Positions 6,077 through 64,000 of a stretch of DNA of 64,000 nt are shown here, one piece after another. The notes beneath the pieces were generated by a model that saw only the letters and a program-made list of their open reading frames with translations, made no database searches and was not told the origin of the DNA. The stretch comes from a virus (taxonomy: Duplodnaviria; Caudoviricetes). The stretch covers positions 16,880 through 80,879 of the IMG/VR virus record IMGVR_UViG_3300020138_000006. One strand, 5' to 3'. The position numbers and the translations under genes are program-made. Every line of letters begins with the position of its first letter. The first letter of the stretch is position 1.

Positions 6077-6849
6077 TGTCTGCGCCCAAGCTTCAGATTC
6101 GCTTCCCGCTCGACGACACCGGTCTGGCGATCTCGCTGTGGGTGTCGTCGACGACGGACAGGGGCTTCTTCGCTCAGCTCCAGAAGACCGAGACGCGCTA
6201 CTCGTGGAACAGGGTCATGGCCACGATGCAGAAGTTCTACGCGCAGGCGGCGCAGGAGCTCAACGAGCTCGCGGTGGAGGAGTTCAAGAAGAGCCGCAAG
6301 CGGCCGGGCGTGTCGACGAAGCGCCTAGAGAAGGCGCTTGTGGATCCGCGCAACATGCGCATCCTCCAGGACGGGTACCGTGTCGGGTATGGCCGGTTCA
6401 TGAAGACGAGTGAGGCGCGCTACTGGCGTCAGATCGACGAGGGCACGACGGTCCATGTCGGCCGCCTGCTTCCGGCCGGACTGTGGGGGGCGTCTCTCAA
6501 CGGCCGTTGGGCGGTGAGTGAGAAGGGCAACCGCTACGCGCTGACGAAGCCGCCGTATGCCCTGCCGGGAAAGTCGACCGGTGGTAAGTTCCAGCCGCTG
6601 TCGACGGCGACCAAGTCAGGCGTCCGCAGCGCGCGAGCGGAGTGGCGCCGTGACGGGGGCGAGGGGAGGTTCCCTCCTCGGCCGAGGATTCGCCGGGAGA
6701 TCGAGGCGGAGCACTACTACCACCGTGCGTATCTGCGGTGGTCGCGCACAAACCGCCCACTGAACCTGCTCGTCGCCGTCATGCGTGCAGAGTTCCGCTG
6801 GACGCAGCCGATCCGCTCGTACGACCAGCTGATGGCGGCCCTGACCTAG
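6076..6849 (+). CDS. Basic neck/tail-completion protein (HK97 gp10-like position)
   Basis: ATG 6076; 257 aa, R/K-rich; YWRQIDEGT segment; positional. Confidence 0.5.
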   Translation: MSAPKLQIRFPLDDTGLAISLWVSSTTDRGFFAQLQKTETRYSWNRVMATMQKFYAQAAQELNELAVEEFKKSRKRPGVSTKRLEKALVDPRNMRILQDGYRVGYGRFMKTSEARYWRQIDEGTTVHVGRLLPAGLWGASLNGRWAVSEKGNRYALTKPPYALPGKSTGGKFQPLSTATKSGVRSARAEWRRDGGEGRFPPRPRIRREIEAEHYYHRAYLRWSRTNRPLNLLVAVMRAEFRWTQPIRSYDQLMAALT

Positions 6850-52310: not shown

Positions 52311-52435
52311 TGCTCCCGCCAGGAGTCGAACCCGGGATCGCCTGGATAACCGCGGTGGGCAGGGCCCGGTGCAGGTCCAGGTGCTCTTCTCTCTGCGCGC
52401 CGTAACGCGCGAGCTATCCGTTGAGCTACGGGAGC
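52311..52435 (-). ncRNA. tRNA-Arg-derived RNA with 28-nt D-loop and 24-nt anticodon-loop insertions
   Basis: Acceptor GCTCCCG/CGGGAGC+A, D-stem GCTC/GAGC, anticodon stem CCTGG/CCAGG, variable CGATC, T-arm CCGGG-TTCGACT-CCTGG; 73+52=125 nt. Confidence 0.8.
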
Positions 52436-54984: not shown

Positions 54985-55613
54985 GCCAGCTCTCGATCCA
55001 GGGCCTCTCGGCCCTCCCGCTCGGCCTCATCCTGCCCGTAGAAGCCCCAGACGGACTCGATCACCCTCCAGTCCTCGTACATCCCGTGCGAGACGGGCTT
55101 CCCGTCGGACTTGCGCACGGTGGTGGTGGTCACCACGGTCGCTTCCTCCAGGACGTAGCCGTAGACCTCACCGTCGGCCCACAGCTCGTACTCCTCGACT
55201 TCGCCTCGCGTGGTCTCGACGCCCATCGTGGCGCCCCACCGTTCGCACAGCTCCGGGTCGGAGTACCAGAGAATGCCATCGCTGACGACGACACCGAGGT
55301 CCCATCCGTGGAAGATGCGCCCCCAGCGAGCGAAGGCGGTCGTCGCATCGAAGGGGCGAAGCGCGCGCCCGTTGTGCCAGTGTGCGTGCCTGTCGGTCGC
55401 CCCGAAGAAGTAGCGGATCGCCTCGGAGAGGGAGTTGTGGTTGTTGACGACCCCGCCCTCCCAAGTCTGGCCGGGCTCCATCTTGCGCCAGTCGTACGAG
55501 GGAAGGACGAAGTAGGACGTGCAAATGCCGTCCCGGTCGAGTCGCGGATTGACCGCGTCCTCGTCCCGCTCGATGCGCAGGCGGTAGTTCTGCGTCACCT
55601 CGATGTCAGTCAT
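54981..55613 (-). CDS. Conserved phage/MGE hypothetical protein
   Basis: EVEEYELWADGEVYGYVLE...ESVWGFYG motif. Confidence 0.75.
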   Translation of the reverse strand: MTDIEVTQNYRLRIERDEDAVNPRLDRDGICTSYFVLPSYDWRKMEPGQTWEGGVVNNHNSLSEAIRYFFGATDRHAHWHNGRALRPFDATTAFARWGRIFHGWDLGVVVSDGILWYSDPELCERWGATMGVETTRGEVEEYELWADGEVYGYVLEEATVVTTTTVRKSDGKPVSHGMYEDWRVIESVWGFYGQDEAEREGREALDRELA

Positions 55614-56497
55614 GCGCCACCCCCCTCGGTGGGCGGGTTCGCACTCCACGATGCGACCATCACGCGCCCGAGATTGCGCAGCGCCTTGTACTGGTCCGTC
55701 CACAACCGCTGCGTTGCGTCGTCCGCCCTCCACTGCTTCCGTCGGCGGTTCACCTCGGCCATGAGGGTGTCGAGAGTCCCCGTCCAGCAGCCCACGACGA
55801 GGACGTGCCCGCTCGCGTCCCCCGTGCGCGCGAGCGTCGCGGTGACACCTTCGGACCCGATAGGGCCGACCGCGATCCAATATGCCTGTGAATCCACCCG
55901 CGCCTTGCCAGACACCCGCGCGTTGCCGAACACCCACGCGTTGCCGAACACCTGCGCGTCGCCGTACACCCGCGCGTCGCCGTACACCCGCGCGTCGCCG
56001 TACACCTGCGCCTCGCCGAACACCCGCGCGTTGCCGAACACCCACGCGTTGCCGAACACCTGCGCGTCGCCGTACACCCGCGCGTCGCCGTACACCTGCG
56101 CCTCGCCGTACACCTGCGCCTCGCCGAACACCCGCGCGTTGCCGAACACCCACGCCTCGCCGAACACCCGCGCGTCGCCGTACACCCGCGCGTCGCCGTA
56201 CACCTGCGCCTCGCCGAACACCTGCGCCTCGCCGAACACCCGCGCGTTGCCGTACACCTGCGCGTTGCCGTACACCTGCGCCTCGCCGAACACCTGCGCC
56301 TCGCCGAACACCCACGCGTCGCCGTACACCTGCGCCTTGCCGTTGCGCAGGGTCAGGCTCTCGACCCAACCGCCCAGGTCGCCAGCCTTGACCCCCGCGC
56401 TCGGAATGTCCACGAGCGCACGGATCCGATGGACCGTCACACCCTGCGCGTTGACCTTCGACTCTCCGGTCAACTCGATCTTGATGTCCATGCTCAT
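55610..56497 (-). CDS. Hexapeptide-repeat (left-handed beta-helix) protein
   Basis: ATG 56497; RIRAL.D...GDLGGWVES, then 24 x A[QRW]V[YF]G[DEN]-type units; C-terminal VGCWTG. Confidence 0.85.
   Translation of the reverse strand: MSMDIKIELTGESKVNAQGVTVHRIRALVDIPSAGVKAGDLGGWVESLTLRNGKAQVYGDAWVFGEAQVFGEAQVYGNAQVYGNARVFGEAQVFGEAQVYGDARVYGDARVFGEAWVFGNARVFGEAQVYGEAQVYGDARVYGDAQVFGNAWVFGNARVFGEAQVYGDARVYGDARVYGDAQVFGNAWVFGNARVSGKARVDSQAYWIAVGPIGSEGVTATLARTGDASGHVLVVGCWTGTLDTLMAEVNRRRKQWRADDATQRLWTDQYKALRNLGRVMVASWSANPPTEGGGA
55904..56335 (-). repeat. 18-bp tandem repeat array (24 units)
   Basis: Encodes the hexapeptide repeats; read directly. Confidence 0.92.
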
Positions 56498-56751
56498 TCC
56501 CTCCAGTAGTCGGGTCGGCCGGCCTGAAGCCAGGCGTCCAGTGCGTTCTCCAGGCCGTGCACGAAGCAGATGTAGGCGTGCTCGTCGAACTCCAGATCCT
56601 CGGGCCAGGTCGAGTAGCGGGCGCCGTACTCGTTCGCGTCCACGTAGTCCTGAAGCTCCTCGAAGGAGCGCACGGAGGACGGGACCTTGGACTCTGCGAC
56701 GTCCCACTCGATCTCGGACATCGCGAGGTTGATGGCCTTGGTGAGGTTCAT
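56494..56751 (-). CDS. Hypothetical protein
   Basis: VPSSVRSFEELQDYVDANEYG motif; ATG 56751. Confidence 0.7.
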   Translation of the reverse strand: MNLTKAINLAMSEIEWDVAESKVPSSVRSFEELQDYVDANEYGARYSTWPEDLEFDEHAYICFVHGLENALDAWLQAGRPDYWRE

Positions 56752-58342: not shown

Positions 58343-58680
58343 TGCGTGAGTCCGTCGTAGTAGCCGACGACGACGAGGGACCCGTAGTCGTGGCGAGAGT
58401 AGGTGCGGTCGCACTCGTCCTCGGTCGCGTACCGGACCATCACTGCCGAGGAGTAGGACTCGGACTGGAATCCGTCCCACCCCACGAAGGGGCTTTCGGT
58501 CAGGTGCGGCTGGTCGACGCGCTCGAACTCGTCGATGTCGTACCAGGACCCCCGGTACCGGAAGAACCGGTCAGCCCAACGGTCCTCGTCGTGCACGTAG
58601 TCGAAGTCGGGTCGAACGTCGTCGGGAAGGTCGTGCCACGTGACGAGCTCCCGGATGCGTCCGTTCGTCTTGACGGTCAC
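58339..58680 (-). CDS. Conserved phage hypothetical protein
   Basis: FFRYRGSWYD..EF...GWDG..S.SY.S..MVRY. Confidence 0.72.
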   Translation of the reverse strand: MTVKTNGRIRELVTWHDLPDDVRPDFDYVHDEDRWADRFFRYRGSWYDIDEFERVDQPHLTESPFVGWDGFQSESYSSAVMVRYATEDECDRTYSRHDYGSLVVVGYYDGLTQ

Positions 58681-58928
58681 TCGGCCACCTCCGTGGCGAC
58701 GTCGAACCGAAGTCTCATCGCCTGCGGCCCGTACGCACGCCATGCGGCGAGGTTGGCGAACATGCCGGAGGGGCGCGCCTCGTGGGACTCATCGAGGGCC
58801 TCGTCCGCCTCGTCGCCACGGTGCAGGTGGACGTAGGGCGCGACCCCCTCCCGGGGCGTCGCGTAGTTCGGCTCGACGAACAGGTGGCAGTCGGAGCACT
58901 TCTCGTAGAGCCCGCGACCGCCGCTCAC
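58677..58928 (-). CDS. Hypothetical protein
   Basis: 83 aa, CSDC...H.H. Confidence 0.65.
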   Translation of the reverse strand: MSGGRGLYEKCSDCHLFVEPNYATPREGVAPYVHLHRGDEADEALDESHEARPSGMFANLAAWRAYGPQAMRLRFDVATEVAE

Positions 58929-59236
58929 GGCCGGACCTCCGTCACGGAGTACGCGACTCCGAGGTCGTGGTCGCCCGTGTGGCCGGGGGTCGGACCGAAG
59001 ACCGTGCCGGTTCCGGCGAGGACATCGGCGCCGAAGTTCTCCCAGTCACCCTGGGCGAGGCACTCCAGCACGTTGACCGTGGCGGAGTAGCCACCGACGA
59101 TGTCGTCGTTGTCGTCCTCGTCCTCGCGCCGCTCCCGGGCGAGGTAGTCCCACGCCTCAGTGGCGGTGTCGAAGACGGGCGGGTCGTCGTCGGTCGGCAG
59201 GTACCCGGGCACGTTGATGGTGGCGAGGAAGGTCAT
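58925..59236 (-). CDS. Acidic hypothetical protein
   Basis: NVPGYLP.DD.P motif; 103 aa. Confidence 0.7.
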   Translation of the reverse strand: MTFLATINVPGYLPTDDDPPVFDTATEAWDYLARERREDEDDNDDIVGGYSATVNVLECLAQGDWENFGADVLAGTGTVFGPTPGHTGDHDLGVAYSVTEVRP

Positions 59237-59248
59237 GGCGTCTCCGTC

Positions 59249-59443
59249 TCAGCGGTGGAAGTCGAGCAGGGTGTCGATGTGGCCGAGCGCGTCGTGGAGC
59301 CACCCGATCTCGTCGTCGCCGGTCACCTCGCGGTAGTCCGGGTCGTCGTGGCGGTCCATGTCGTTCTCGTCGTCGAGCCGCTTGCGCACGGTCTTCAGGA
59401 ACGTCTCGGCCTCATCGAGGACGGTCTCCAGGCCGTCAGCCAT
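59249..59443 (-). CDS. Acidic hypothetical protein
   Basis: 64 aa. Confidence 0.65.
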   Translation of the reverse strand: MADGLETVLDEAETFLKTVRKRLDDENDMDRHDDPDYREVTGDDEIGWLHDALGHIDTLLDFHR

Positions 59444-59592
59444 CAGGCACGCTCGCTGTGGAAGCTGACGGGCACGCCCGCGGCGGTGGCGTTGGCCCGC
59501 AGAGCGCGCTTCAGGTTGCGCGCACGCTCACGGGTGGCGAGCTGGTACTGCCGGCTCCTCCCGGAGCCGTAGGTCACGGTCAGGTCCCACAT
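59443..59592 (-). CDS. Small basic protein
   Basis: ATG 59592 after GAGGAG. Confidence 0.6.
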   Translation of the reverse strand: MWDLTVTYGSGRSRQYQLATRERARNLKRALRANATAAGVPVSFHSERA

Positions 59593-60078
59593 TGCAGGGC
59601 TCCTCACTCTGAAGGGACAGGAAGTTGCTCTCACTCTCTTAGCCCGCTCGCTAACCGTCGAAGGCTCACAAGTCGCGCACCGGAGATGTTGAGGGCCCGA
59701 TATCCGCCACGTCGGGCAAGCGTGATCGCGCATCCGCACGCCGGCCTCGGGCCGCACGGATTCGGCAGCGCGAGTGCCGGAGGGTCAGTAATCGAACCCT
59801 CAGAAAGCCGACCGGAGTATCCCGCCGTCGGCGTGGCGGGTGCCCTGAAGCGGACAGGACTGGCACCGACGAGCTCGGTACTGGTCCAGCGCGCTCCAGA
59901 CGGAAAGGGAAGGTGACCGTCCGCCGACTCGCAGGGAGTTGGCGTTGGACGACCGGTCAGGCCAGGCCGGGCGCATGCGTTACGCACGCGACCTCTGGTC
60001 TCACGTCGTCCCGCATGGAAAGGTGCTTGGTCGACGGACGGCCACCGGGTGAGCCCCTAGGAAAGGCTCGGTGCGGAG

Positions 60079-60141
60079 CCGAGCTATAGCGCTCATTATG
60101 CTCCGCGCGGAACCGAGCTATAGCGCTCATTATGCTCCGCG
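60079..60141. repeat. 29-bp direct repeat, 34-bp period
   Basis: CCGAGCTATAGCGCTCATTATGCTCCGCG at 60079-60107 and 60113-60141. Confidence 0.92.
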
Positions 60142-60479
60142 TCGAAATCCTAGGCATGGGTGGCACTGGTCAGTTGCCCTGTTGGGAGGGCGTGCATAGT
60201 TGACCAGGACGCCGGGAGGGCTGTTGCACTACTGCCGAAAGTGCATACGGCAGTCCCTCAGGTGGCCACCACAAGTCACACCTGAAGGGTCGGTGCACGT
60301 CACACCGAAGTGCAGCCTACGGATGCGTCACGCTCACCTCCCTTGTCTAGGTCGCACGGAGGGCCCGAAGGCCACATGACAGCGCGCCCGTGCGCCGATC
60401 TGCGAGCGCACGCACGGGCAGCGGCCTCGCCCACGTGCGGCCCATCGCAGGGTCGGCACGTAGGGGTCCCGCAGGAAGA

Positions 60480-60755
60480 TCAGTTGCCGGACAGCAGCGC
60501 GAAGGTCTCGGCGCGCACCGAGCGGGAGTGTCCCCACTCCAGCTCCTGCCCGTCGTCCATCGCGTCGATCAGGTCGGCGAGGTAGTCGCGCACCGCGTCG
60601 GGCAGGAGGGCCCGGATCAGGGCGCCACGGTCGAAGGCGTCCAGGATCGACGCGTCCTCACACTCGATCGCGACCGCGACGGTACGCGAGTCGCGTTCCA
60701 CCACCTCCAGGCGCGAGAGGCCGTGGACACTCGCGACGGCCCTCACTGGGACCAC
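60480..60755 (-). CDS. Hypothetical protein
   Basis: 91 aa. Confidence 0.6.
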   Translation of the reverse strand: MVPVRAVASVHGLSRLEVVERDSRTVAVAIECEDASILDAFDRGALIRALLPDAVRDYLADLIDAMDDGQELEWGHSRSVRAETFALLSGN

Positions 60756-61066
60756 AACCAGGAGTGCATGAGGTCGTCCGCCTCAGCACGGGCACCGCAG
60801 GCCATGAGTGCGTCGTAGACCGGCACAACGTCGGTCGGCCGACCTTGCATGCGGTGGTAGGTCTCACGCTTCAGGACCGCGATGGCGTATCGGCGGTCGT
60901 TCGCTCGCAGCACGCGCAGCGCGTTGCTCACGGCGTTGACGAGCTCACCGTTCTCACCGGTGGCAGCACCGGTCCGCTCGTCGTGCTGAAGCATGTGCAC
61001 GTCCATCAGGATCGGGTCGTCGGTGTCGGCGCCGCACAGGGCGCACGTCAGAAGGTCCATCCTCAC
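60743..61066 (-). CDS. C2H2 zinc-finger-like protein
   Basis: C-x2-C-x12-H-x3-H (CALC...HMLQH). Confidence 0.65.
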   Translation of the reverse strand: MRMDLLTCALCGADTDDPILMDVHMLQHDERTGAATGENGELVNAVSNALRVLRANDRRYAIAVLKRETYHRMQGRPTDVVPVYDALMACGARAEADDLMHSWLWSQ

Positions 61067-61350
61067 TCCTCACTCCACCAGGTGTAGGCGTACCGAGTCC
61101 CGGCGAGGTGGCAGCCGCACGCGTCGCACGGCCATCGGGAGAAGTCGTGCATCTCGCAGTCCTCGGAGTGCGCGTCGCCGTCCGACGGGTCCTGAAGGTC
61201 GTGCCCGCACTCGTCGGTCCTTCGGCCGGGAGTGACGTCCAGGTCCGGCAGCAGGTTCCACGGCTCGCAGCACGGGTCCTGCGGAGGCTCACCCTCGCGG
61301 GCGAAGTAGCAGTCCACGCACACCCAGAGGGTGCCCTGTGCGGTCGCCAC
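61063..61350 (-). CDS. Cys-rich metal-binding protein
   Basis: CVDC...FSRWPCDACG. Confidence 0.7.
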   Translation of the reverse strand: MATAQGTLWVCVDCYFAREGEPPQDPCCEPWNLLPDLDVTPGRRTDECGHDLQDPSDGDAHSEDCEMHDFSRWPCDACGCHLAGTRYAYTWWSEE

Positions 61351-61351
61351 G

Positions 61352-61444
61352 TCAGGCGCCGTACTTCGCGCGGCGCACGTCCCGGCGCCGGAGCGTCTCG
61401 GCGCGGCCGGACGGCTGGGACTTGTGGGTCAGGTGCTTAGCCAT
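61352..61444 (-). CDS. Small basic peptide
   Basis: MAKHLTHKSQ...RAKYGA, AGGAG RBS. Confidence 0.5.
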   Translation of the reverse strand: MAKHLTHKSQPSGRAETLRRRDVRRAKYGA

Positions 61445-61745
61445 GATGACTCCTGAAGGTTGTCAGGAGGGCGGATGCCCTCACTCTCTAGCCCACCGGG
61501 ACGGTTGGGCCGTTGCACAGCTCGGGCACCGGAAGGGCCCTTGTGCATGGCGCCGATCTGCGAGCGCACGCCATGCGACCTGAAGGAGAGTCAGGCCGAC
61601 TCGGAAGCCGGGACGGTGCCGTAACCGAGGCACGTCGGGCAGTAGGACAGCGGGGCAGTGTCCGAGCGCGGGTAGCGCGTCAGGTGCAGGTAGCCGTTCA
61701 TGAGGGTCATCCACACACCGGGCTCCGGGCACTCCTGAAGCTCAG

Positions 61746-61928
61746 TCACGGGCGGTCCTCCACGTCATCGGCCCAGCACGTGCAGCACGCATGGACCGTG
61801 CCGCCGAGATCGTTCGTCCATGTGAAGTGCCCGGACGCGTCGATCCGGTAGCGGGAGGTCCAACTAAGGTTGGACCGGTTCACCGCGTTGATCGCGGCGC
61901 ACGTCGGGCACTCCTTGCCGGCGGCCAT
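61746..61928 (-). CDS. Small Cys-rich protein
   Basis: CPTC...HACCTC. Confidence 0.6.
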   Translation of the reverse strand: MAAGKECPTCAAINAVNRSNLSWTSRYRIDASGHFTWTNDLGGTVHACCTCWADDVEDRP

Positions 61929-61929
61929 C

Positions 61930-62070
61930 TCAGGCCACCAGGTACCCGGCGGACTGGAACTGTCCGGCCGTGAGGGTGTCGGTCGTCAGGCCGAGGATTC
62001 GACCCGAGGGCGCGTAGACGGTGTGCACCGTCGGCGCGGGCGGCAGGGACTGCGGGTACCACGTCGTCAT
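61930..62070 (-). CDS. Hypothetical protein
   Basis: Hand-translated 46 aa; GGAGG RBS. Confidence 0.55.
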   Translation of the reverse strand: MTTWYPQSLPPAPTVHTVYAPSGRILGLTTDTLTAGQFQSAGYLVA

Positions 62071-62172
62071 GTCATCCTCCAATGGGTGACGTGTTTCTTG
62101 CCTTCACCTTCTAGACCGGCTGGCCGGCTCGGAGCCGACACGGTCCGGGCACCGACAATTGCCGGTGTGCCG

Positions 62173-62382
62173 TCAAGCCCGGAACGGGGCGTGACGCGTG
62201 AGCCACGCATCGGCCGACCGTGATGTCGGCCGACGAGCGATGTCCGTTGCGAGGGCATCGGCCTCACCGAAGGTGAGGTAGCCCTCACGGACGGCACCAG
62301 CGAGGGCACCGTCCGTACTGTGGCCGAGGCCGCGCATAATCTGGAGCCGCCGAAGCAACTCGCCGTGCGGGACGTCCGACAT
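62173..62382 (-). CDS. Hypothetical protein
   Basis: 69 aa; AAGGAG RBS. Confidence 0.55.
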   Translation of the reverse strand: MSDVPHGELLRRLQIMRGLGHSTDGALAGAVREGYLTFGEADALATDIARRPTSRSADAWLTRHAPFRA

Positions 62383-62661
62383 GATTGTTCTCCTTCACGT
62401 CCTGCCAGCAGGGGCACTTTTTTTCACCGATTCGACGCCCGAAGTAGGGGTCGAAAACGTGCCCTCACCTTCTAGCCCGTTCGGCTAGCGGCATCCGAGC
62501 CCAGTACGGGCACCGGAAGTTTTTGGGGATGGAAGGCCGTAAGGGGAACCCGGCCGAATCTCGGCCGGTTCGCTGCCTTCACTGTGCCTTCACTGTCTAG
62601 GCCATCGGGCGCGCACCACTTGCGCGCACTACGCGCACCAAAGCTGCGATCCGCGGGCACG

Positions 62662-62713
62662 CGAAAGGGCCCGCACCGTCACCCGTGATGGGCGGACGGT
62701 GCGGGCCCTTTCG
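62662..62713 (-). terminator. Stem-loop after sigma-like gene
   Basis: 19-bp perfect stem CGAAAGGGCCCGCACCGTC / GACGGTGCGGGCCCTTTCG. Confidence 0.8.
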
Positions 62714-62724
62714 GCCCGCTACGT

Positions 62725-63807
62725 CTAGCGGAACATCGCATCCGCGACCGCGCGCGCGTTGGCGACCGTGACGGGCGCGTCGATCACGCGGGCCGTAGCG
62801 GCCGCGTCCGCGTTCGCGTCCGTGATCAGGCCGCGCTCACGCCACGCGTCCGCGAGCGACGGGACCGGGCGACCCATACCGGCCGCCATGGCGGCCCGGT
62901 ACTCGGCCGCTGCCCGCGCCCGGTTCGCGGGCGATTCGAGCGCGGCCCGCACGTCATCCGCGATTCGCGCGACAGTCGTGCCGGACGCGGGTCCGGCCCA
63001 CGGGTAGCCGCCGATGAGGTCGCGCGACGTGCCCATGAGGTCGCGCGCGCCCGCGCGGCCGTAGTCACGCGCGTACTCGGTGTAACGCTTCTGTGCGGCC
63101 GTCATCTCGGGCCGCTCCCGCCGCGTCACGTCCCGTACGCGTCCGATCGGCGCGCGGTCACCCTCACGGGCAATTTCGACCATCGCGGCCGCGACGCGCG
63201 ATACGAACCGGGCGCACGCGGACCGCAGTGTGTGAATCGTGTCGCGCGAGACGTAGCCGCTCGCGGACACTGCGACAGTGGCCACGCCGCTGTCACGCAT
63301 GGCGCGCGCGATGGCGGACCATGACGCGCCCGGACGCGCGTCAAGCCATGCGCGGACAATCTCCGCGTCCGCCGGGTCCAATCCGTCGCGGACGCGATTC
63401 AGTGCATCCGCGAGCACGTCAAGAATGGACGGCGACGGCGTGATTCCGGGCCGCGTGTCCTCAACGTCCCAGCCGTCGCCCGCGAGCGTGTCCCACGACA
63501 CGACGAACTGCGACCCCATCGACCGGACCGGCCGCACGCTCTCGGGTGCGACGGTGCGGGGGATTCCGCACGCGCGCTCCGCCACTGCCACGACGTGACC
63601 CGGGTGCTCGCGCTGCAAGCGCGCCCAGAGCAGCGTGCGGACGCGCGGCCGCGCCGCCATGATCGCGTCCGCGTAGCGGACCACCACTGGCGCGTCGCTC
63701 CGCGCGTCACTCATCGCGTCCGTGACGAGCGACGGCCGCGTGTCGCCATCCTCCCCGTGCCAACGGGGGACCGCGACCGTGTCGGTCGCGTTCGCGTTGC
63801 GTGTCAT
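62725..63807 (-). CDS. Putative sigma-70 region-4-like DNA-binding protein
   Basis: LNRVRDGLDPADAEIVRAWL...SWSAIARAM matches the region-4 HTH pattern; AAAGGTGAGG RBS. Confidence 0.5.
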   Translation of the reverse strand: MTRNANATDTVAVPRWHGEDGDTRPSLVTDAMSDARSDAPVVVRYADAIMAARPRVRTLLWARLQREHPGHVVAVAERACGIPRTVAPESVRPVRSMGSQFVVSWDTLAGDGWDVEDTRPGITPSPSILDVLADALNRVRDGLDPADAEIVRAWLDARPGASWSAIARAMRDSGVATVAVSASGYVSRDTIHTLRSACARFVSRVAAAMVEIAREGDRAPIGRVRDVTRRERPEMTAAQKRYTEYARDYGRAGARDLMGTSRDLIGGYPWAGPASGTTVARIADDVRAALESPANRARAAAEYRAAMAAGMGRPVPSLADAWRERGLITDANADAAATARVIDAPVTVANARAVADAMFR

Positions 63808-63906
63808 CGTGCCCTCACCTTTCTAGACCGGCGGCACCGTGCCGCACACCCCCACTATCGGCACCGCGACCCCTCACCCACTAGGCCAATATCCATTCCG
63901 TGATCC

Positions 63907-63928
63907 ATTCGTTATCAATTCGTTATCA
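63907..63928. repeat. 11-bp tandem repeat ATTCGTTATCA x2 in an AT-rich patch
   Basis: Read directly. Confidence 0.85.
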
Positions 63929-64000
63929 ACGCGCCGTCGCCCGGCACGCCCCCCGGTTATTCGAACACGTGTGCGAGCTCCTGCTCTCGGGAACGGCAGA

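Follow-up and report, generated by a model that had tools for sequence, protein, structure and literature searches.

How are the early genes at the right end of an uncultured phage genome transcribed, and do the six short repeated sequences that stand between them serve as their promoters? The sequences in question occur in the IMG/VR virus record IMGVR_UViG_3300020138_000006, and each of them consists of two conserved boxes separated by a spacer of constant length. The window analyzed here is the last 64 kb (64,000 nucleotides) of this 80,879-bp record, with a G+C content of about 67%; positions refer to the window unless genome positions are indicated. A first-pass annotation, made from the letters of the window, had described the six bipartite elements and had offered several options for them: hairpin or activator-dependent early promoters, an RNA leader or antitermination motif, or recombination sites. 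We conclude that the bipartite element is a real, selected and lineage-specific signal. With a probability of roughly 55%, we favor the reading that the six copies are early promoters of the leftward gene arm, which would be used by the host RNA polymerase and would depend on a factor bound at the upstream box.

Six bipartite elements near the right end of the genome

Searching both strands of the 80,879-bp genome with the pattern GGTGC-N34-CTA[AG] returned exactly six matches, where about 1.5 would be expected by chance as estimated from base composition. These matches are the same six minus-strand copies that the first-pass annotation had listed, and they are the only ones genome-wide. All of them are intergenic, as had been claimed, are co-oriented with the surrounding genes, and lie within 4.3 kb near the right end:

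63811-63866, minus strand: c6, with box 1 GGTGCCGA and box 2 CTAGAAAGGTGAGGGCA; 45 bits with Infernal; the 360-aa first gene has its ATG 3 nt downstream of the final A.
62586-62640, minus strand: c5, with no open reading frame (ORF) behind it; 47 bits with Infernal; the 79-nt stretch from c5 to c4 forms a hairpin whose base includes box 2 (z -2.9).
62461-62515, minus strand: c4, the copy closest to the consensus; 53 bits with the weight matrix and 54 bits with Infernal; it precedes a doubtful 69-aa ORF by 78 nt.
62100-62154, minus strand: c3, followed after 29 nt by the ATG of a 46-aa gene; its counterpart is copy r3 of the related contig L026.
61477-61531, minus strand: c2, 32 nt before the ATG of a 30-aa gene; its counterpart is copy r4 of L026.
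59627-59682, minus strand: c1, the most divergent copy, GGTGCGCG ... CTAAGAGAGTGAGAGCA; 41 bits with Infernal; 34 nt before the ATG that opens a long leftward gene run.

When aligned, the copies follow the consensus (c)TTCC-GGTGCCCG-nnn-TGnG, then variable bases, and then YGGn-CTAGAAGGTGARGGCA. Box 1 and the CTAG or CTAA of box 2 begin 39 nt apart in 6/6 copies, a distance that corresponds to the invariant 31-nt spacer reported earlier, and c1 and c6 carry one extra base within box 2, between CTAG and GTGA. In a genome scan with a two-box weight matrix, which was built from the copies themselves, the six copies scored 37-53 bits and the next real site 13.5 bits; the maxima of shuffled genomes (n=5) were 5-14 bits, and the gap is very large. 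A sequence-only Infernal model gave the copies 41-54 bits (E 1e-11 to 1e-15) and left the rest of the window at noise level. The earlier statement that the element belongs to no known family also stands, with no match in Rfam, in phage records or in IMG/VR records.

Conservation of the boxes and their spacing in related phages

The sole close relative found is a contig of 2,772 nt, L026, which was also reached through its 54%-identical homologue of the first early gene, here called gene A. It carries GGTGCCCG boxes at positions 1340, 1489, 1647 and 2178 and box 2 in the versions CTCAAGGGTGAGGG, CTCAAAGGTGAAGGCA and CTTGAAGGTGAAGGCA, plus a decayed CCCAAAGGACAGCA, amounting to three full copies and a fourth, r4, that is partly decayed. 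The r4 copy stood outside the set used for model building and was still detected at E 8e-5. Conservation of the spacing in relatives had been put forward as a check on the element, and box 1 lies exactly 39 nt from box 2 in all four L026 copies. In the alignment of c3 with r3, box 1 is identical at 8/8 positions and box 2 at 15/16, the 31-nt spacer at about 15/31 (approximately 48%), and there is no indel; in that of c2 with r4, the first 16 nt are conserved and the remainder has diverged. Because the boxes and the 39-nt distance were kept while the spacers diverged, the features under selection are the boxes and the spacer length, and not the spacer sequence. The CTAG of box 2 is replaced by CTCA or CTTG in L026 and is therefore dispensable.

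No close relative was present among 50,697 phage records searched by megablast and tblastn with the region, gene A and the primase, and single-protein scans of IMG/VR with gene A and with a 406-aa protein returned no match. Pattern scans of IMG/VR for the motif gave only single chance matches within genes of unrelated, mostly low-G+C contigs, and a scan of JGI metagenomes gave at least 119 loci among the matches listed, with one match each. In a scan of GTDB genomes, the L026 contig alone had several matches; this contig is binned in a low-G+C Bacillota metagenome-assembled genome and is probably mis-binned. Apart from L026, the matches listed in all three scans are attributed to chance.

Two distant relatives reached through a 95-aa early protein, L162 and L163, have no bipartite element and carry other motifs instead. 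In L163 (2081-10554), almost all intergenic gaps of the early region contain the palindrome GTTAGGNCCTAAC, which follows a hairpin and precedes the start codon by about 20-25 nt, and this contig also has canonical TTGACA-N18-TAGGAT promoters. The contig L018, with a 34%-identical gene A homologue, contains one loosely similar site only. In L013, four tandem units of 78-103 nt (6264-6586, minus strand), each made of CCGGAAAGGTYCG-N11-GCTTTAGTAGGTGAGAGG and a strong hairpin, contain no ORF and immediately follow the first early gene, as c5 and c4 do in the present genome. These units combine a box-2-like TTAGTAGGTGAGAGG with a different upstream box, CCGGAAAGGT, at the ordinary -35 distance, and the first gene of L013 is unrelated to gene A. 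Each lineage of this phage group thus seems to have its own repeated intergenic signal.

Box 2 as a candidate core promoter with an upstream box

The invariant core of box 2 is a hexamer, R-A-N-R-G-T, which ends in the T of GTGA and is followed by GARGGCA. It takes the forms GAAGGT, GACAGT, GAGAGT and AAAGGT. Its second base is A and its sixth is T in 9/9 full copies (the six described here together with those of L026), and these correspond to the two -10 bases flipped out by sigma factors. A G-rich discriminator and a purine start are likewise ordinary for promoters. Box 2 would accordingly provide a core composed of a -10-like hexamer and a G-rich discriminator (GARGGC), with transcription predicted to start at or near the A of GGCA. 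From this final A to a start codon preceded by a Shine-Dalgarno sequence there are 29 nt in c3, 32 in c2, 34 in c1 and 30 in r3. Terminator-like hairpins lie directly upstream of c5, c2, r1, r3 and r4, with a T-run before r1. A consensus scan of 58500-64000 found 0 sites with a sigma-70-type -35/-10 pair, and the elements are therefore the sole promoter candidates for the arm. Given the -10-like core, the start-codon distance of about 30 nt, the upstream terminators and the lack of any other promoter, a promoter is the simplest reading.

With the T of the hexamer placed at -7, box 1 (GGTGCCCG-nnn-TGnG) spans about -54 to -40, and the centers of the two boxes are about 43 nt apart, roughly four helical turns. 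The alignment of the nine copies has no conserved column at the -35 position. Nothing conserved at -35 together with a constant gap is the anatomy of a promoter with an upstream-bound factor, in which the gap represents a distance along DNA. The 31 free bases would then be ordinary B-form spacer DNA, whose length would set the geometry between the box 1 factor and RNA polymerase. The polymerase would most likely be the host enzyme with a host sigma factor, with help at box 1 from a protein of the phage or host, or from a contact resembling that of an UP element. Among the options raised at the outset, activator-dependent early promoters are consequently the one we favor, on the combined grounds of the -10-like hexamer, the start-codon distance, the terminators, the missing -35 and the upstream box at a fixed distance.

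The leading candidate for the protein that binds box 1 is the product of the first early gene:

62725-63807, minus strand: gene A, 360 aa.

We infer this role because the first gene and the upstream box change together across the relatives L026, L013 and L018: the gene A homologue of L026 (54%) accompanies the same box 1, and L013 has both an unrelated first gene and a different upstream box. Homologues of gene A occur only in L026 (54%) and L018 (34%), and the AlphaFold2 model of the protein is poor (predicted local distance difference test score, pLDDT, 48.6). A resemblance of gene A to sigma region 4 was considered and rejected: neither Pfam nor PHROGs supported it, hhalign against the phage sigma family gave a probability of 0.2%, a search of Protein Data Bank (PDB) profiles lent no support, and the protein atlas gave weak leads only.

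Several points weigh against early promoters aided at box 1. The T expected at -12 of a -10 element is present in 0/9 copies; the register RANRGT has A(-11) and T(-7) in 9/9, the alternative register TAGAAG lacks T at -7, and neither makes a good -10 for a principal sigma factor. In c6, box 2 could equally be the Shine-Dalgarno sequence of gene A (GGTGAGGG, 6 nt before the ATG), in which case the start of c6 would move upstream. A conserved block centered near -47 is a non-standard position for an activator. The tandem copies without an ORF (c5, r1 and r2) are odd for plain promoters, and the start positions are predictions from the motif. As for gene A, its association with box 1 comes from three lineages only, and no known or DNA-binding domain was detected in it with Pfam, PHROGs, hhalign or a PDB profile search.

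The copies without an ORF (c5, r1 and r2 of L026, and the L013 units) may be stacked tandem promoters or sources of short hairpin RNAs. A more specific proposal joins these elements into an undescribed actinophage promoter architecture, in which an early phage protein acts at box 1 and the ORF-less copies are genes for short hairpin RNAs; we put this forward tentatively and regard it as doubtful. Under this proposal, an early protein, possibly the lysine-poor 360-aa product of gene A, would bind an asymmetric 15-nt box at -54 to -40. It would recruit host RNA polymerase, over a fixed 31-nt gap free of sequence requirements, to a core with neither a -35 nor a T at -12. The c5, r1 and r2 copies and the four L013 units would make hairpin RNAs at the onset of infection, serving for example as decoys or regulators.

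Possible regulator binding sites and a probable palindromic operator

The alternative that survives best, which we still regard as unlikely, is that the elements bind a phage regulator without acting as promoters: operators or roadblocks, similar to stoperators, with the role of silencing the early arm or setting its timing. A protein with two domains, or an oligomeric one, would touch both boxes on one face of the helix, a proposal that agrees with box centers roughly four helical turns apart (about 43 nt), with asymmetric and strictly spaced boxes, and with their co-orientation with transcription in short intergenic gaps. A temperate phage, as suggested by the serine integrase, also needs a repressor system. 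On the other hand, the elements are confined to 4.3 kb and not spread along the arm, their distance to the start codon is a uniform 30 nt or so, they follow terminator-like hairpins, and the arm would have no promoter candidate without them. Moreover, a separate 20-bp palindrome distributed over both arms fits an operator much better.

This palindrome, approximately TTTCCGCGCTAGCGCGGAAA, is located at 1219, 7384, 22560, 22585, 29948, 48285 and 57796 of the window and at genome position 10918. It is intergenic, present in both arms and often just upstream of operon starts, and variants of it occur in the relatives L013 (GATTCCTGCGCTAGCAGGAATC) and L015 (GTTTCTGCGCTAGCAGAAAC). By analogy with the conserved inverted repeats (CIRs) of phiC31, it is probably the operator of a phage repressor. 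A candidate for this repressor is a conserved minus-strand gene of 250-270 aa, at genome 6862-7680, with a weak C-terminal match to a helix-turn-helix domain.

Spacer folding and the possibility of an RNA element

A little less likely again is an RNA element within a long early transcript from the outermost promoter, functioning in processing, stabilization or antitermination in the manner of boxA/boxB, with the boxes as conserved single-stranded segments on either side of a variable hairpin. The first-pass annotation had described the spacers as hairpin-containing. Each spacer does fold, with predicted hairpins of 4-9 bp, and the pooled foldability is slightly above that of shuffled sequences (combined z -2.7 for n=10 copies, L026 included), a weak trend that favors the RNA explanation. 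Individually, most copies fold no better than their own shuffles, with z values of -0.3, -1.6, +0.4, -0.7, -0.2 and -0.7 for the six and of -0.6 to -2.9 in L026, and hairpin size and position are not fixed from copy to copy.

The claim that the ends of the element can pair (GTGCCC with GGGCAC) holds for c4 and c2, where the whole-element z values are -3.0 and -2.6. End pairing is absent from c1, c3, c5, c6 and the L026 copies, and no compensatory change was seen. Rfam offered no match to the elements beyond chance hairpin hits at the terminator of gene A. Conserved structure without conserved sequence, which had been the argument for an RNA, is thus not what we observe, the end pairing being without covariation and the hairpins out of register.

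More favorable to an RNA are the position of the elements right after terminator-like hairpins, where antitermination would be useful, and the fact that box 2 forms the 5' arm of significant hairpins in the c5-c4 stretch downstream of c5 (z -2.9) and in the stretches between the L013 units (z -2.7 to -4.5). Nevertheless, hairpins of varying size within elements of constant length speak for a distance along DNA and not for an RNA fold, and six sites in 4.3 kb are far denser than nut or put sites. The idea of hairpin promoters likewise finds no support, with hairpins that are neither positionally conserved nor individually significant, and a model in which hairpin extrusion would move box 1 to -35 was rejected on the grounds that hairpin sizes vary while the total length is constant.

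The phage sigma factor and the late motif

It is very unlikely that the elements are promoters of the phage's own sigma factor, with box 2 as the -10 element and box 1 reached by a divergent region 4. The phage has a FliA/WhiG-like sigma gene at its left end, outside the window (genome 1230-2036), as the last member of a cassette with an Lsr2-like gene and a small ORF (genome 230-583 and 947-1228, respectively) that is found in at least 10 related contigs. Sigma regions 2 and 3 are nearly invariant across these relatives and region 4 is hypervariable, with a deletion in L013. This pattern parallels the conserved box-2-like core and variable upstream box of L013, and the sigma gene adjoins the early arm once the genome ends are joined; both observations speak for the phage sigma.

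The motif GTCGAGTGC argues otherwise. Exact copies lie on the coding strand at genome 2006, 18150 (window 1271), 24307 (window 7428) and 25887 (window 9008), about 15-60 nt upstream of the starts of late, lysis and structural genes. The motif recurs at comparable positions in at least four sigma-bearing relatives (L013 at 11511; L015 at 7724 and, on the minus strand, 6167; L022 at 2312; L025 at 2707), and L024 has the variant GTCGATTGC. It contains a CGA core, which is typical of FliA-type -10 elements, and is probably the -10 region of promoters read by the phage FliA/WhiG-like sigma. None of the six elements contains GTCGAGTGC, even with one mismatch allowed. Because the motif lies upstream of late genes and is absent from the elements, the phage sigma is most likely a late sigma, which leaves the early elements to the host RNA polymerase. 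By established promoter geometry, moreover, regions 2 and 4 of one sigma factor cannot span a 31-nt gap, and transcription of the early arm must precede synthesis of the sigma. Box 1 was also considered as a FliA-type -10 and rejected: c6 reads GCCGATAG but lacks a conserved -35 upstream, and the remaining copies are a poor fit.

Recombination, cassette-boundary or DNA-packaging sites are highly improbable: the elements do cluster near the terminus, between small accessory genes that differ among relatives, but matching copies front matching genes in L026 with no rearrangement at the elements, so that the suggested shuffling of early-gene cassettes is not supported, the boxes are asymmetric without a core-type inverted repeat, the start-codon distance is uniform, and the sites reach 4.4 kb inward, much farther than the recognition region of any known terminase.

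Comparison with known systems

The early promoters of the Streptomyces phage phiC31, reportedly described by Ingham et al. in 1993, are by analogy the nearest counterpart in logic. As judged from the phiC31 sequence (AJ006589), both temperate actinophages have many near-identical, phage-specific motifs, unlike sigma-70 promoters, before successive early gene groups, often after a hairpin and, in phiC31, about 34-36 nt before the start codon, and both have a separate palindrome (the CIR operator in phiC31). The phiC31 motif is a contiguous block of about 21 nt, CCGGGTTGCCGACTCCCTTAC, whereas the elements described here are two boxes with 31 free bases. The two are not the same promoter type, since there is no sequence similarity, the phages are unrelated and the architecture differs.

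Activator-dependent phage promoters without a -35 include Mu Pm (Mor) and the Mu late promoters (C), the P2 late promoters (Ogr) and the T4 middle promoters (MotA box). As proposed for the present elements, a -10 works together with a conserved box, set at a constant distance upstream in place of the -35, before one temporal class of genes. Their boxes are located at about -30 (MotA), -43.5 (Mor and C) and -55 (Ogr, a dyad), in contrast to the asymmetric block at -54 to -40 here, and they serve middle or late genes instead of early ones. No homologue of Mor, C, Ogr or MotA was found in the phage. The element resembles this functional class in anatomy only, with a conserved box at a fixed distance and no -35.

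Among actinophages, the start-associated sequences (SAS) and extended SAS (ESAS) of cluster K mycobacteriophages, which Pope et al. reportedly described in 2011, are also repeated, co-oriented intergenic signals upstream of many genes, with an inverted-repeat part upstream of a purine-rich box. However, SAS lie 3-8 nt from the start codon and include the site of ribosome binding, and the ESAS arms show sequence conservation; in the present elements, the end of box 2 is about 30 nt from the start (78 nt in c4, with only c6 close, at 3 nt) and the intervening bases are unconserved. The T7 promoters A1-A3 are similar in being several strong tandem promoters, partly with no ORF in between, situated just inside the terminus where the first-expressed genes lie, but they are canonical sigma-70 promoters and the present elements are not. 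The hairpin promoters of the N4 virion RNA polymerase also contain an inverted repeat and drive early transcription near a genome end; their hairpin is fixed (a stem of 5-7 bp, a 3-nt loop and a constant position), and those observed here are varied or insignificant. Cluster A stoperators differ in being single asymmetric sites of 13-14 bp spread genome-wide, compared with two boxes that all lie in 4.3 kb of 80.9 kb. The nut and put RNAs differ as well, for the elements have no conserved compensatory base pairs and no match to a curated model. At somewhat better than even odds, the element is an early phage promoter of a new form, with a recognition box upstream.

Genome setting and other features of the right end

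The phage genome encodes a serine integrase, Ku and a DNA ligase, a primase-helicase and a long ORF of tape-measure size, and the phage is classed as temperate on the basis of the integrase gene. According to a gene call based on G+C at third codon positions, rightward genes extend from the left end to about 38.6 kb of the window, and the leftward arm extends from the gene at 63807 near the right end as far as about 41.4 kb.

The contig ends are, judging from the relatives, the physical ends of a linear genome, because several related contigs start at the equivalent place. Four of them start within a few tens of bases of a common conserved sequence upstream of the Lsr2 gene, and the L026 contig starts at the equivalent of the right end. 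With the contig ends as true ends, the six elements sit 0.13-4.4 kb from the genome terminus. In L018 and L013 both genome ends are joined, and the early arm diverges from the Lsr2, small ORF and sigma cassette; the junction in L018 reads ...AACGGCAG|GTGGTCTCTCGCG.... At both ends of the present genome (L012), TTCGAWTAAC(C)GGG is read inward about 35-48 nt from the terminus (window 63940-64000; genome 1-50). The end sequences, together with Ku and the ligase, suggest defined termini that would be rejoined after injection.

The remaining features of the right-end 4.3 kb are as follows:

63869-63887, minus strand: a lone box 2, CTAGTGGGTGAGGGGT, behind A+T-richer repeats (TTGATAACGAA, twice).
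62650-62722, minus strand: strong terminator-like hairpins directly after gene A and before c5, with only chance hairpin-type matches in an Rfam scan.
61545-61576, minus strand: a hairpin whose loop, GTGCGCTCGCAGATCGGC, is conserved, located 13 nt upstream of c2.
60387-60418, minus strand: a second hairpin with the conserved loop, its stem different yet complementary, upstream of the weak copy.
60331-60390, minus strand: a site claimed as a weak copy, with CTAG 39 nt after a degenerate G+C-rich box and a box 2 interrupted by about 5 nt.

The two partial sites named in the first-pass annotation fared less well than the six full copies. The half copy near 63871-63887 does contain box 2, but box 2 alone, behind repeats and weaker than had been stated; it has positional equivalents in L013, L018 and L026 and is probably the promoter lying farthest out in the early arm. 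The weak copy at 60331-60390 retains the 39-nt distance to CTAG but gave no Infernal match even at E<=10, and may be a decayed copy.

Hairpins with the 18-nt loop GTGCGCTCGCAGATCGGC occur at 61545-61576 and 60387-60418 (minus strand) and in L026 at about 1598-1635 and 2137-2168. Their stems vary and stay complementary (GCATGGC/GCCATGC, CCCGTGC/GCACGGG and CACCGG/CCGGTG), and the hairpin at 61545-61576 with its flanks is 100% identical to L026 over about 60 nt, above the neighboring genes. A terminator whose loop binds a protein is one possible function. Between the weak copy and c1 lies a non-coding stretch of 640 nt (59690-60330) without an Rfam match, which holds two direct repeats, GCGGAGCATAATGAGCGCTATAGCTCGGYTCCGC (about 60073-60140), and CCTAGG sites on its flanks; it could be a replication origin or a non-coding RNA.

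Further into the leftward arm, about 20 tandem 18-bp repeats at 56002-56415, inside the leftward gene 55610-56707, give the protein a long run of six-residue repeats. A 377-nt gap contains a tRNA-like sequence interrupted by extra bases, ...GCGCTCCCGTAGCTCAACGGATAGC...GGTTCGACTCC..., at about 52311-52435 (minus strand).

Significance for actinophage gene regulation

The transcription signals of actinophages are almost unknown outside a few model phages, and uncultured phages are annotated without promoters. The elements provide a testable promoter family, with six copies here and four in L026, in which the exact spacing and the diverged spacers separate the bases that matter from those that do not. 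For the lineage of phages with Lsr2 and sigma, a three-part regulation is probable, comprising bipartite early promoters at the genome end, a palindromic operator spread genome-wide and the late motif GTCGAGTGC for the phage FliA-like sigma. If a phage activator does bind box 1, the system would offer a compact orthogonal expression switch for high-G+C hosts.

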